The translations under genes and the position numbers were made by a program. This document shows positions 6,594-33,630 of a stretch of 37,981 bases of DNA, in pieces (positions within the stretch are counted from its first letter, which is position 1; each line of letters opens with the position of its first letter). The stretch is from Candidatus Woesearchaeota archaeon (GTDB lineage Archaea; Nanobdellota; Nanobdellia; Woesearchaeales; UBA10216). The DNA lies in assembly GCA_016180085.1 (NCBI GenBank), contig JACPBX010000035.1, forward strand, positions 1 to 37,981, given 5' to 3'. The notes under the pieces are model-generated. The model was not told the origin of the DNA. It did not search any database and saw only the letters and a program-made list of their open reading frames with translations.

Positions 6594-6614
6594 GTTTGGT
6601 ATGGTTCTGGATAA

Positions 6615-6820
6615 TAAAAAAGAAAAAGCGTAATCGGTATGCGCTTAGATCGTGCCCAACGATCATGCGGATTCAAACAGCCCTTTTTGCTGCGGCAAAA
6701 CCCAAATCGTGCATAGCACGATTGGGCCCAGTCGTCTTTCAGACGACTTGGGAGCGCTGGCGGAAAACGTCAGTTTTGGATTGACCCTTTTTCCTAAAAG
6801 GGTCACGCTCCCGGCGCATC
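6615..6820 (-). ncRNA. Long tRNA-Ser-derived structured element (family A); candidate antisense RNA, strand inferred
   Basis: 6648-6678 and 6806-6821 match the V-arm/T-arm and the 3' end of the tRNA at 14180. 128-nt multi-hairpin insert at the T-loop. No 5' acceptor strand and no anticodon arm. Minus-strand TATA at 6845-6852 and T-tract at 6612-6626. Confidence 0.6.
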
Positions 6821-6832
6821 AATTCTTCAGCA

Positions 6833-7873
6833 ATGAAACAATCAAATTTAAATACTACTGCGGATTCGATTTCTACAGGGGTTGGCAAAATCGCAAAAGA
6901 AGACGGCAGCTACGTGAAGTTGGTTGCTGGCACCGCTGTGCCTGAACTGGCAAAAGAGATTTCTAGGAACGTTGGCATCCCGCTTGTCAAGGCAGACATA
7001 GGGAGGTTCACGAATGGCGAGAGCAGAGTTGAGATTCTCGAGTCAGTAAGAGGAGCTGATGTTTTTCTGATACAGTCAACGTGCCCTCCGGTGAACGACA
7101 ATGTCGTGGAGCTTCTGCTCATAATGGACGCGCTCAGGAGGGCGTCTGCCAACTCAATCAACCTGATGGTGCCTTACTTCGGCTATGCCAAGCAGGACAA
7201 GAAGAAAACAGGCAGGGAGCCTATCTCAGCTAAGGTCATGGCAGACCTGATGGAAAATGCCGGGGCTGCGAGGCTGGTTACGATAGACCTACACGCGCAG
7301 CAGATTGAGGGCTTCTTCGACATACCGGTAGATAATCTTTCGGCAATATATCTTTTTGCCGAATATTTCAGGAGCAAGGGGATAAAGGATACGGTTGTTG
7401 TAACTCCTGACGCGGGCGGCACCAAGAGGGCGAGGGACCTTGCCAATGCCATGCAGGCAGAAAGGATTGCCATAATTGACAAGTACAGGCCGGACTGGAG
7501 AAAGGCAGATGCCATGAATGTAATAGGGAAGGTTGAGGGCATGAATGCCATAATCGTTGACGACTTCATAGACACAGGAGGCAGCATGGTTGAGGCAGTA
7601 AAGGCTGTCAGGAACCACAAGGCGGAAAAGATATGGGTAGCGTGCACACACCCTCTTCTGACTGACCCGGCTACAGAAAGGCTGAAAGCCCTGAACGACT
7701 CTGGCGAAGTGGAAGGATTTGTTTTCACCGACACCATCCCAATACCGAAGCAGAAAATGCTGAAGAACTATGAGGTAATATCCACAGCACCGATGCTTGC
7801 AGACACCATAGAAAGGATTGCCAGGGGATTCTCGCTCCACCCTTACAGGTCAAACTCAGACAAAAAGGCATAA
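6833..7873 (+). CDS. prs: Ribose-phosphate pyrophosphokinase; true start may be downstream, e.g. GTG 6914
   Basis: FTNGESRV, PYFGYAKQDKK, TIDLHAQQIEGFFDIP, TPDAGGTKRA, IVDDFIDTGGS, ACTH. Confidence 0.96.
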   Translation: MKQSNLNTTADSISTGVGKIAKEDGSYVKLVAGTAVPELAKEISRNVGIPLVKADIGRFTNGESRVEILESVRGADVFLIQSTCPPVNDNVVELLLIMDALRRASANSINLMVPYFGYAKQDKKKTGREPISAKVMADLMENAGAARLVTIDLHAQQIEGFFDIPVDNLSAIYLFAEYFRSKGIKDTVVVTPDAGGTKRARDLANAMQAERIAIIDKYRPDWRKADAMNVIGKVEGMNAIIVDDFIDTGGSMVEAVKAVRNHKAEKIWVACTHPLLTDPATERLKALNDSGEVEGFVFTDTIPIPKQKMLKNYEVISTAPMLADTIERIARGFSLHPYRSNSDKKA

Positions 7874-20763: not shown

Positions 20764-20878
20764 ATTCTTGTTTTCACCAGTAAAGTTTTAAGTTTTGCCA
20801 AAGCTATCAGCTGAAGCGTTTTATCAGTTTTCATCACAGCAGCTGTTGCAAATGCCCTGTCATGGCCAAAAAATAAGG

Positions 20879-21064
20879 TTACTCAAGCACTTCCAAAACC
20901 CTTGCCTTGAGCCTTGATTTTCCCCCTGTTGACTCTGCAAGCGGCTTGCCGCAGACAAGGCACGTTACAGCTGTCGAAATCTTGCCGAATATTATCTGCT
21001 CATTCTTGCACTTCGGGCAGCGGACTTTCACGAACTTTGAACTTGGCTCCTTGATTTTTACCAT
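20879..21064 (-). CDS. rps27e: 30S ribosomal protein S27e
   Basis: SKFVKVRCPKCKNEQIIFG...CLVCG...TGGKS; AGGTGA RBS. Confidence 0.96.
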   Translation of the reverse strand: MVKIKEPSSKFVKVRCPKCKNEQIIFGKISTAVTCLVCGKPLAESTGGKSRLKARVLEVLE

Positions 21065-21130
21065 GCATATCACCTGAAGAAGCGAAAAACAGCAGCCGTT
21101 TAAAAAGGTATCGCAGCATCCGCACAGCAG

Positions 21131-21300
21131 GATTATGCGCCGGAGCCGGGATCCCACGTCGCTTTGGGCGACGGGGCACAGTCGTGCAATGCATGACTTG
21201 TGTGTCACCCTTTCCATTGCAATGAAAAGGGCTTTGAACCCGGATGGCTGTGGAGTAACCCCGGGTTCGTCTGACCAGTTTCGTAACCCGGCTTTCTTTA
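21131..21300 (+). ncRNA. Long tRNA-Ser-like element (family B); candidate antisense RNA, strand inferred
   Basis: The minus strand folds as acceptor GCCGGGT/CTCCGGC+G73, a D-like arm, no anticodon arm, a V-like arm, and T-arm CCGGG-TTCAAA-[81 nt]-T-CCCGG. Plus strand has a TATA at 21099-21106 and a T-rich end at 21293-21304. Confidence 0.6.
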
Positions 21301-21447
21301 TTCTAAAGAACCACCAGTCATAGACTGGTGGGATTACAGAACTGGTGGTTCTTAGTGCTCAGAATTTTCCTACCTTATGAAATCAGCAGCAATCAAAGCT
21401 TGCCATCAGTCACAGACTGATGGAAAATTCTGACATTTTATTTAGAA
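21301..21447. repeat. Nested palindromic element
   Basis: CCACCAGTCATAGACTGGTGG (21311-21331) and CCATCAGTCACAGACTGATGG (21403-21423); 13-bp inverted repeat 21307-21319/21340-21352; 12-bp inverted repeat 21359-21370/21422-21433; terminal TTCTAAA/TTTAGAA. Confidence 0.7.
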
Positions 21448-21448
21448 C

Positions 21449-21757
21449 TTACTCAAACTCCACTTTCTTGAGCCTTATGCCTTTATTTTGCGTGTGGGTC
21501 TTGCTGCAGACAGAGCACTGATACCTGATGTCGGTCTTCTTTGTCTGCTTCTTGCCGGTCATCTTCCACTGCGTAACCGGAGGCTTGGAATACCTTCCAA
21601 GGTTGCCCGCCCCCCTGGCACGGCCTCTCCTTCTTGCCCTGATTTTTGAGCCATATTTGAGAGGGCTCGGAGCCTTCTTCTTGGCAGTAAAGACCTTGTG
21701 CTCGGTGTGCTTCCTGCAAAAAGGGCAGAAGCGCTTCACGGTTTTCGGGAATTTCAT
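21449..21757 (-). CDS. rpl44e: 50S ribosomal protein L44e
   Basis: MKFPKTVKRFCPFCRKHTEH...KKQTKKTDIRYQCSVC. Confidence 0.96.
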   Translation of the reverse strand: MKFPKTVKRFCPFCRKHTEHKVFTAKKKAPSPLKYGSKIRARRRGRARGAGNLGRYSKPPVTQWKMTGKKQTKKTDIRYQCSVCSKTHTQNKGIRLKKVEFE

Positions 21758-21905
21758 CTTGAGGAGAGAGAACCAGGAGGGTGTTTAAAAAGGTTGCGCC
21801 TATGTGAGCCGCAAGTTTAGCGACATCTGTGAATAACCTTTATATATTCTGGTTAGCAGCTAACTAATGTTGGATTTTTAATTAAGGGAAGCGTCGGGGG
21901 ATAGC

Positions 21906-33528: not shown

Positions 33529-33630
33529 GCGGGGATGCCGCAGCGGCCAACCGGGGCAGGCTTAGGACCTGCTGGCTTAGTGCCTTCGGCGGTTCGAATC
33601 CGTTCGGCGGTTCGAATCCGCCTCCCCGCA
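33529..33630 (+). tRNA. tRNA-Leu(TAG) with an 18-nt tandem duplication in the T-arm
   Basis: GCGGGGA/TCCCCGC+A; GCAGG-CTTAGGA-CCTGC; V-arm; TTCGGCGGTTCGAATCCG occurs twice (33585-33602 and 33603-33620). Confidence 0.92.

Follow-up and report, generated by a model that had tools for sequence, protein, structure and literature searches.

The stretch of DNA analysed here (the window) is the 37,981-nucleotide (nt) contig C23 of a Candidatus Woesearchaeota archaeon genome (assembly GCA_016180085.1; G000 in our numbering). In this contig the ribosomal protein genes rpl44e (21449-21757, minus strand) and rps27e (minus strand, ATG at 21064), whose order is conserved, are separated by a spacer of 387 nt that contains a 147-nt palindromic repeat and a second element, and nothing else. 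An earlier note on this DNA described the second element as a near-complete transfer RNA (tRNA) cloverleaf from which only the anticodon arm is missing, and proposed that it might be an aminoacylatable mimic or, read from the opposite strand, the gene for a small RNA (sRNA). Our analysis, which included a DNA search of 40 relatives, points instead to a collapsed remnant of a two-gene cassette, made up of a short module and a tRNA gene and common in this lineage (the Woesearchaeota, within DPANN); we put the probability of this reading at about 0.7. The source assembly is 1.0 Mb long and about 83% complete, and its H+-pyrophosphatase (H+-PPase) has matches of up to 91% identity among proteins that carry the label Candidatus Woesearchaeota.

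A cloverleaf shape in the rpl44e-rps27e spacer

Read in the tRNA sense, positions 21292-21138 of the minus strand do have the shape of a tRNA without an anticodon arm, comprising in order an acceptor helix with six of its seven positions paired, a D-like hairpin, a T arm carrying an 81-nt insert, and G73. The acceptor strands, GCCGGGT (21292-21286) and CTCCGGC (21145-21139), form five Watson-Crick pairs, one G.U pair and one T.C mismatch. The dinucleotide TA separates the 5' strand from the D-like segment, CG-AAACTGGTCAGA-CG at 21283-21268, in which the D stem has only 2 bp. Between this segment and the variable-arm (V) segment there is only AACCCGGGGTTA, the 17-nt anticodon arm being missing, and CTCCACAGCCAT then leads on to the T stem. 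The T stem itself (CCGGG at 21243-21239, CCCGG at 21150-21146) is perfect, and the T loop, TTCAAA...T, is split by the insert at 21232-21152. The V-like arm described in the earlier note is present only in part: of a variable arm, loop and 3' strand can be recognised, and GGTTA stands in for TGG-CT... on the 5' side, so that there is no helix.

The 5' strand of the acceptor also has a second partner. CCGGGTT (21291-21285) pairs perfectly with AACCCGG (21267-21261), 20 nt downstream, to close the base of a hairpin with a bulged A21284, inner CG/CG pairs and the 12-nt loop AAACTGGTCAGA (21281-21270). The minus strand folds better than shuffled sequences (z = -4.7), and in its minimum-free-energy fold the 5' strand pairs with the 3' strand of the T stem and not with the acceptor strand. 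Searches with Rfam (gathering score or E<=10, 20800-21800) and likewise with ARAGORN gave no tRNA call at the element, nor did Rfam place a family of any other kind at the site at either threshold. On the plus strand, the two signals named in the earlier note are both present: a TATA box, TTTAAAAA, at 21099-21106, 29 nt ahead of TGCGCC, and a T-rich end, CTTTCTTTATTCT, at 21292-21304, the latter including the T-rich end of the module (the complement of 21293-21302), a putative archaeal terminator. The parts of the element are listed in Table 1.

Table 1. Parts of the element, the neighbouring TATA box, and class-II tRNA genes with G73 in the source genome
Feature	Position	Strand	Remarks
A-rich tract AATAAAGAAA	21293-21302	-	Precedes every family member; identical at C14:10542-10551
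Module hairpin, from tRNA positions 1-31	21261-21292	-	57/61 to C14:10542-10602; covariance model R1, 84.8 bits
Linker GGTTA	21256-21260	-	(A/G)GTT(A/G) kept in family alignment
13-nt CTCCACAGCCATC	21243-21255	-	Covered by alignments to C14 module (10590-10602) and C14 tRNA (10903-10915)
T stem 5' strand CCGGG and T loop TTCAAA	21233-21243	-	From the parent tRNA (23/23 match, see text)
81-nt three-hairpin insert	21152-21232	-	T-loop position 59/60; homologous to G007:C10 insert
T60, T stem 3' strand CCCGG, acceptor 3' strand CTCCGGC, G73	21138-21151	-	Within the 25/26 match to C14
3' trailer CATAATCCTGC	21127-21137	-	Right cassette end; trailer also follows C14 tRNA (CATAAACCTGC)
TATA box TTTTTAAA of rps27e	21099-21106	-	Outside the element; conserved in family spacers
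Class-II G73 tRNA genes	window 14180-14291 (GAA); C14:10855 (CAG); C14:62616(-); C22:56668; C35:1364(-); C41:16297(-); C13 (contig end)

The likely origin of this shape can be seen on another contig of the same genome. At C14:10855-10967 there is an intact class-II tRNA gene with anticodon CAG and G73. Its acceptor is GCCGGAG/CTCCGGC, its D arm GCG-AAATTGGTTAGA-CGC, its anticodon loop CTCAGAA and its variable arm TGGCTCCACAGCCAT; the T stem is CCGGG/CCCGG, the T loop carries a 28-nt intron, and the trailer is CATAAACCTGC. The earlier note had predicted a cognate tRNA-Ser with precisely this acceptor and T stem; such a tRNA exists and has a Ser-like body, with G73 and a long variable arm, but its anticodon reads a leucine codon and it is no normal tRNA-Ser. 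About 250 nt upstream, at C14:10542-10602, lies a copy of the 5' part of the element, and the arrangement on C14 is intact: module, TATA box, 250 nt, then tRNA(CAG).

Pairwise alignment traces the element to these two sources. Window positions 21302-21243 match the C14 module with 93% identity, and the tRNA is matched from 21255-21227 (C14:10903-10931, 27/29) and from 21152-21127 (C14:10953-10978, 25/26), covering the 3' side of its variable arm, its T arm, the 3' strand of its acceptor and its trailer. Identities of 93-96% overall are far beyond chance, and the run formed by V segment, T stem and T loop is identical to the C14 tRNA at 23 of 23 positions. On the module side, the hairpin loop AAACTGGTCAGA is a copy of the tRNA(CAG) D loop, and the linker is found where a tRNA would have its anticodon arm and its V-stem 5' strand. 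Because the two alignments overlap by 13 nt, at CTCCACAGCCATC (21255-21243), the element is a fusion of the upstream module with the 3' third of the tRNA, joined inside a 13-nt direct repeat. An assembly artefact was considered and is unlikely; the shared repeat is only 13 nt long and the same type of junction recurs in five other assemblies.

Module-tRNA cassettes and their collapse

The direction of change is shown at two orthologous loci. The first adjoins a divergent gene with the TATA box TTTTATAAAGTTAATGG and holds an intact cassette in the source genome and three relatives (G000:C35, G001:C117, G004:C59, G040:C51), whereas in G005:C74 an identical module continues past the V arm and, without a break, becomes the T arm, acceptor 3' strand and trailer of a tRNA. 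At the second, where both flanks are collinear, the cassette is intact in G008:C4 and G001:C116 and fused in G000:C30 and G007:C15. The occurrence of intact and fused cassettes at the same loci implies that the long elements are deletion products, and the polarity is from intact to collapsed.

Such fusions recur. The first long element of the window, at 6612-6854, has the same build when compared with the tRNA(GAA) at 14180 and the modules of that tRNA, its junction lying in GTGCCCAAC, and further long copies of the type found at 21 kb are present in G002:C95 and G003:C46. In all, the source genome has three of these 'anticodon-less cloverleaves' and its relatives at least four. Several are decaying: the T stem is broken in G002, the 3' strand of the T stem is truncated in the 6.6-kb element, and in G007:C15 the hairpin is truncated and the A-tract displaced by an inserted hairpin element.

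How might the fusion have come about? The V segment of a module repeats the V arm of its tRNA in direct orientation, at a distance of about 300 bp. Deletion from one repeat to the other would take away the two promoters, the leader and the tRNA from position 1 to about position 45, and would leave the module joined to what remains of the tRNA (T arm, acceptor 3' strand, trailer), which is the make-up of 21302-21127. On this scheme a cassette would once have been present in the rpl44e-rps27e spacer, and what is left would now have neither a promoter of its own nor a function.

Intact cassettes are found at about a dozen loci and have a constant order: A-rich tract, hairpin, (A/G)GTT(A/G) linker, V segment, spacer, TATA, leader and tRNA. 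The V segment consists of 10-13 nt identical to the variable arm of the adjoining tRNA. The TATA box (TTATATTTAAAC) faces the module after a spacer of 19-25 nt and is followed by the leader of about 210 nt, with a second TATA box. The tRNA is a class-II tRNA with G73 and the anticodon CAG, CAA, AAG or GAA. In the source genome, all seven class-II G73 tRNAs found (four with CAG, one each with GAA and CCT, and a truncated AAG gene) have an upstream module. Their acceptors are Ser-like, GCCGGGA, GCCGGAG or GCCGCGG, with GCCGGGC in the C13 copy. The canonical tRNA-Leu(GAG) on C18 has A73.

A covariance model, R1, built from eight module copies, detects modules in 11 of the 25 genomes searched from the family; within the genus, 7 of the 9 other genomes have them. 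The element at 21 kb, with its score of 84.8 bits, is the second best of 20 family members. The same model gives 64.7 bits to the stand-alone unit B1 (13800-13880), bearing out the relationship between B1 and the 3' half of the plus strand proposed in the earlier note. The element has the traits of a module (A/U tract, D-arm-derived hairpin, linker) and the expected match to a cognate tRNA, since its V segment agrees with the C14 tRNA(CAG) at 13/13 positions and its D part with the 16-nt D arm, allowing two G.U pairs. What it lacks are the B recognition element (BRE) and TATA box expected past the V segment, at a distance of 19-25 nt and facing the module; there is no TTATATTTAAAC box of the kind seen in the short units, and the V segment runs directly into the T arm of the tRNA.

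The modules appear to be tRNA-specific partners that track the D and V arms of their cognate tRNAs. The longest near-exact match of the V segment is 11.3 nt to cognate and 6.4 nt to non-cognate tRNAs, and that of the D part 10.8 and 6.7 nt. Modules hold only one strand and the loop of the V arm and so cannot mimic that arm. In the antisense direction they are contiguous complements, starting about 23 nt after a TATA box that is preceded by a purine-rich stretch, and ending T-rich, and are thus probably genes for anti-tRNA RNAs of about 55 nt, complementary to the D arm and the V arm. Covariation in the module hairpin is weak among 20 copies (63.8% of cells are paired, and sliding the alignment by one column does equally well), and the replacement of CCG/CGG by AAT/ATT in G002 is a single case, so that we do not claim the RNA helix as proven.

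Some further features of the cassettes may be recorded here. The leaders of about 210 nt (L057; C14:10603-10852) are A/T-rich, with GGCATATTAA as second TATA box, and the leader of the Leu-type cassette on C14 is homologous to those of the tRNA(CAC) cassettes in the G005 and G006 spacers (L022, L023), sharing AAGCCTTCTT(C/T)TG(C/T)TGAAA(A/G)(C/T)TTTGCGG. The anticodons of orthologous cassette tRNAs differ from species to species, CAG against CAA at the C14 locus (G000:C14 against L052, G007:C10) and AAG against GAA at the C30 locus (L066, G008:C4; L073, G001:C116). The anticodon AAG, with A34, is unusual for archaea. As an explanation of the Ser-bodied tRNAs with CAG, CAA, AAG or GAA as anticodon, codon reassignment was rejected for the one gene tested, that of the H+-PPase: CTG (20 codons), TTG and CTT fall at conserved Leu columns and TTC and TTT at Phe columns of homologues that are 62-69% identical, and these five Leu and Phe codons are thus standard in this gene. 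Elsewhere in the window, a tRNA at 33529-33630 (46 bits, Rfam) has an insert of about 31 nt at a non-canonical intron position in its variable region, an intron that ARAGORN misplaces.

The spacer, its TATA box and alternative explanations

The DNA search of 40 relatives shows the rpl44e-rps27e spacer of the window to be a mosaic of repeated modules. Among the relatives, the spacer is 58-61 nt long in G001 and G003, of the same genus, and 12-65 nt in several other genera, whereas unrelated inserts of 140-1110 nt occupy it in G005, G006, G007, G008, G014 and G015; it is an insertion and rearrangement hot spot. In G006 a Ser-type tRNA 3' end with its trailer (CTCTGGCGCATAACCCTGC) stands beside the rps27e promoter, in the same place as in the window, and the trailer of the element recurs there as it does in G002, G003 and G007:C10; in G005 the spacer is occupied by a different tRNA cassette. 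In the G005 unit, a tRNA(CAC)-like gene of class I whose T loop holds an insert comes first; an A-tract, a hairpin and a copy of the anticodon arm of this tRNA come next, and a TATA box lies beyond them. The arrangement looks like that of an antisense unit with an anticodon arm as its target. The inserts in G007 and G014, 0.8-1.1 kb long, contain antisense open reading frames (ORFs). In the window, the 147-nt nested palindrome (21301-21447, bounded by TTCTAAA/TTTAGAA) fills the space between the rpl44e stop codon and the element. It is a multi-copy repeat, with a second copy in the source genome at C22:39378-39558, which has compensatory changes in both hairpins, and matches in G021 (about 20) and G007 (13), and looks like a miniature inverted-repeat transposable element.

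Several observations weigh against a simple collapse of a cassette at this site. No relative examined has an intact Leu-type cassette in the rpl44e-rps27e spacer, and collapse in situ is therefore something that we infer. The 81-nt T-loop insert differs from the 28-nt intron on C14, which implies that the parent was a paralogue or an older version or allele of the C14 cassette and not the cassette as it is today; the insert is 78-95% homologous to that of an intact tRNA(CAA) in G007:C10, a locus in synteny with C14. Gene conversion or the movement of a cassette may link the remnant, the C14 cassette and this tRNA(CAA). Element and C14 hardly differ in their exon-like parts and trailer, as would be expected after gene conversion or if the event was recent; selection for complementarity would have had the same effect. 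The module part is undamaged and forms its most stable predicted duplex in the genome with the C14 tRNA (-69.8 kcal/mol), those with the other five class-II tRNAs reaching -49.2 kcal/mol or weaker. Finally, the TATA box 29 nt upstream on the plus strand leaves room for residual antisense expression.

As to the insert itself, its double-hairpin core at 21152-21203 (CACAAGTC..GACTGTG + C(C/A)C(C/A)GTCGC..GCGAC(G/T)TG(G/T)G) also occurs at C35:20076-20123, C29:42603-42637, L051, L053-L056 and L076, both free and as an insert at T-loop position 59/60 of live tRNAs and dead remnants. The tRNA trailers of G005:C74 and G007:C15 carry insertions of related hairpin elements behind GCGCA.

Does the TATA box serve the element? 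On the minus strand it lies 34 nt before the rps27e ATG, with a Shine-Dalgarno sequence, GGTGAT, at 21074-21069. Of the 16 family spacers that could be extracted, 15 have the sequence AAC(C/T)TTTTTAAAC ahead of rps27e, and G010, whose spacer is 12 nt long, does not; the box is kept in relatives whose 58-61-nt spacers hold no element. Since it is conserved before rps27e with or without the element, we take it to be the rps27e promoter. The plus side of the box is preceded by CAGCCG, whereas in the stand-alone units purine-rich AAAGG or GAAAAG stands ahead of the TATA box. The proposal that the box is the promoter of an sRNA specific to the element is thus not sustained, and of the outcome that the earlier note itself held to speak against it, a TATA box serving only rps27e and no discrete RNA on either strand, half is what we find, in that the box belongs to rps27e.

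The element might nevertheless be a working gene for a plus-strand antisense RNA of about 170 nt, transcribed from the reverse side of the rps27e TATA box and ending at 21293-21304. On the (pre-)tRNA(CAG), the regions paired by this RNA would be the D arm, the T and V arms, the 3' strand of the acceptor and the trailer, which would make the element a second, trans-encoded controller of the C14 tRNA. The distance from TATA box to TGCGCC, the intact module and T-rich end, and the extent of complementarity (25/26, 23/23 and the 16-nt D-arm stretch with two G.U pairs) all favour such a gene, as does a predicted duplex of -91.2 kcal/mol, compared with -68.8 kcal/mol or weaker for other class-II tRNAs; the first long element likewise has a TATA box about 27 nt from its tRNA 3' end. 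However, the promoter is found where the element is absent and lacks the purine-rich upstream sequence, the T tract is weak (TTTCTTTATT, with no run of five T), and other long copies are decaying. The spacing of 29 nt also carries little weight, because the TATA box of the next gene lies about 30 nt past the 3' end of intact tRNAs too, as on C14, a distance that reflects the compactness of the genome. We consider such a gene unlikely. Slightly more doubtful still is the specific form in which the rps27e TATA box is bidirectional and the transcript combines the anti-D/anti-V module with about 50 nt directed against T arm, acceptor 3' strand and trailer. If true, the RNA would be an orphan 'antidote' silencing in trans a potentially mistranslating, Ser-bodied tRNA(CAG), and would couple control of this tRNA to the transcription of a ribosomal protein gene.

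The suggestion of the earlier note that the minus-strand RNA is chargeable fares less well. Here a read-through transcript of rpl44e would be cut by RNase P and tRNase Z, receive CCA and be aminoacylated, or would act as a signal for messenger RNA (mRNA) processing. The acceptor, G73 and perfect T stem of the 21-kb copy, together with the favourable folding of the minus strand, speak for a functional tRNA-like molecule, and seryl-tRNA synthetase (SerRS) generally does not read the anticodon. The main identity element for SerRS, however, is the long variable-arm helix, and the V arm of the element has no 5' strand. Nor is the acceptor conserved among long copies: its 5' strand is AATGGGT in G002, AACGGGT in G003 and an A-tract in 6612-6854, facing 3' strands (C/T)TCCGGC and TCCCGGC, and in the window this strand pairs at least equally well within the module hairpin. 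The broken T stem in G002, the 2-bp D stem, the lack of a minus-strand promoter, and an 81-nt insert that would need splicing and shows no clear bulge-helix-bulge by eye, all point the same way, and a functional mimic is very improbable.

Hardly less improbable is an attachment-site (attL/attR-type) scar dating from the integration of a plasmid or virus that targeted the tRNA gene. In its favour, the tRNA copy is partial and breaks off sharply within the tRNA, the cassette has discrete ends, from AATAAAGAAA to CCTGC, and the spacer is a hot spot with foreign ORFs in G007, G014 and G015. Yet the 387-nt spacer holds no integrase or DNA of an integrating element, and the junction type recurs at orthologous loci of otherwise collinear genomes. 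Moreover, what adjoins the tRNA part at the junction is a tRNA-specific module whose usual place is 300 bp upstream of the same tRNA, so that a simple internal deletion suffices without an integrase.

A disrupted but functional tRNA gene, its anticodon arm supplied by another piece (as in split or tri-split tRNAs) or hidden in the insert, is the least credible of these possibilities. The source genome has 15 tRNAs above the Rfam threshold, 23 according to ARAGORN, and many of those listed have long or oddly placed, non-canonical introns. This is in line with published remarks on DPANN genomes, in which many tRNA genes are disrupted and predicted tRNA sets are incomplete (PMC5829648). Nevertheless, C14 carries an intact gene that shares the acceptor, T stem and V arm of the element, and the long forms derive from intact cassettes by deletion. 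The linker of about 12 nt is too short for two splice junctions, and each of the three hairpins in the insert departs from the 5-bp stem, 7-nt loop and U33 of an anticodon arm. The complementary flanks and absence of an intact gene typical of split halves were not found, although no search was aimed at a stand-alone anticodon-arm piece.

Relation to known systems and implications

Taken as a collapsed cassette, the element resembles the tRNA remnants and pseudo-tRNAs that arise when slipped misalignment or illegitimate recombination deletes the DNA between short direct repeats: it is a partial tRNA gene whose sharp junction falls within a 13-nt direct repeat, its promoter and anticodon arm are gone, and it is recurrent and decaying in relatives. 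What sets it apart is that the upstream repeat belongs to a dedicated, tRNA-specific module, so that the deletion of a cassette removes both partners at once and leaves behind an 'anticodon-less cloverleaf'. The likeness to the tRNA-like domain of transfer-messenger RNA (tmRNA) and to the tRNA-like structures at viral 3' ends, which also combine an acceptor-like helix with a T arm and lack an anticodon arm, does not go far, since the acceptor helix of the element is unconserved and its V-arm identity helix missing. To our knowledge, archaea have no tmRNA, and ARAGORN found none.

The modules, for their part, resemble cis-encoded or divergent antisense sRNAs, for instance those of type I toxin-antitoxin systems such as IstR-1/tisB, in being small, separately promoted units complementary to the product of a neighbouring gene and co-varying with their target. 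They differ in that the targets would be the D and V arms of a tRNA, with the anticodon arm skipped, and the fused element differs further in having lost the promoter of the unit. Disrupted tRNA genes are well known from DPANN archaea and Thermoproteales, among them the split tRNAs of Nanoarchaeum, the tri-split tRNAs of Caldivirga, and introns at T-loop position 59/60. The tRNA genes of the present lineage are likewise heavily disrupted, and the 81-nt insert at 59/60 has homologues in intact tRNAs of relatives; in contrast to split genes, however, the element has no complementary leader or trailer and is not accompanied by a second piece; its cognate is there in intact form, and what the element lacks appears to have been lost by deletion.

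We conclude that the presumed remnant is a variant of the familiar repeat-mediated deletion of tRNA genes, occurring inside an apparently new system. That system, in which class-II G73 tRNAs with Leu, Phe or Arg anticodons are each paired with a tRNA-specific module of antisense type, seems to be undescribed, our literature searches having found no account of such cassettes or their remnants. Should the fusion be expressed, an unusual tRNA would have an orphan regulator in it. For annotation, it serves as a warning that anticodon-less cloverleaf shapes need not be new classes of RNA. The value of the element may thus lie less in any new kind of chargeable RNA than in its record of how module-tRNA cassettes are lost: the short repeat that gives a module its specificity would also make the cassette self-deleting, a single deletion taking the tRNA together with its partner, and this would explain why 'anticodon-less cloverleaves' recur.

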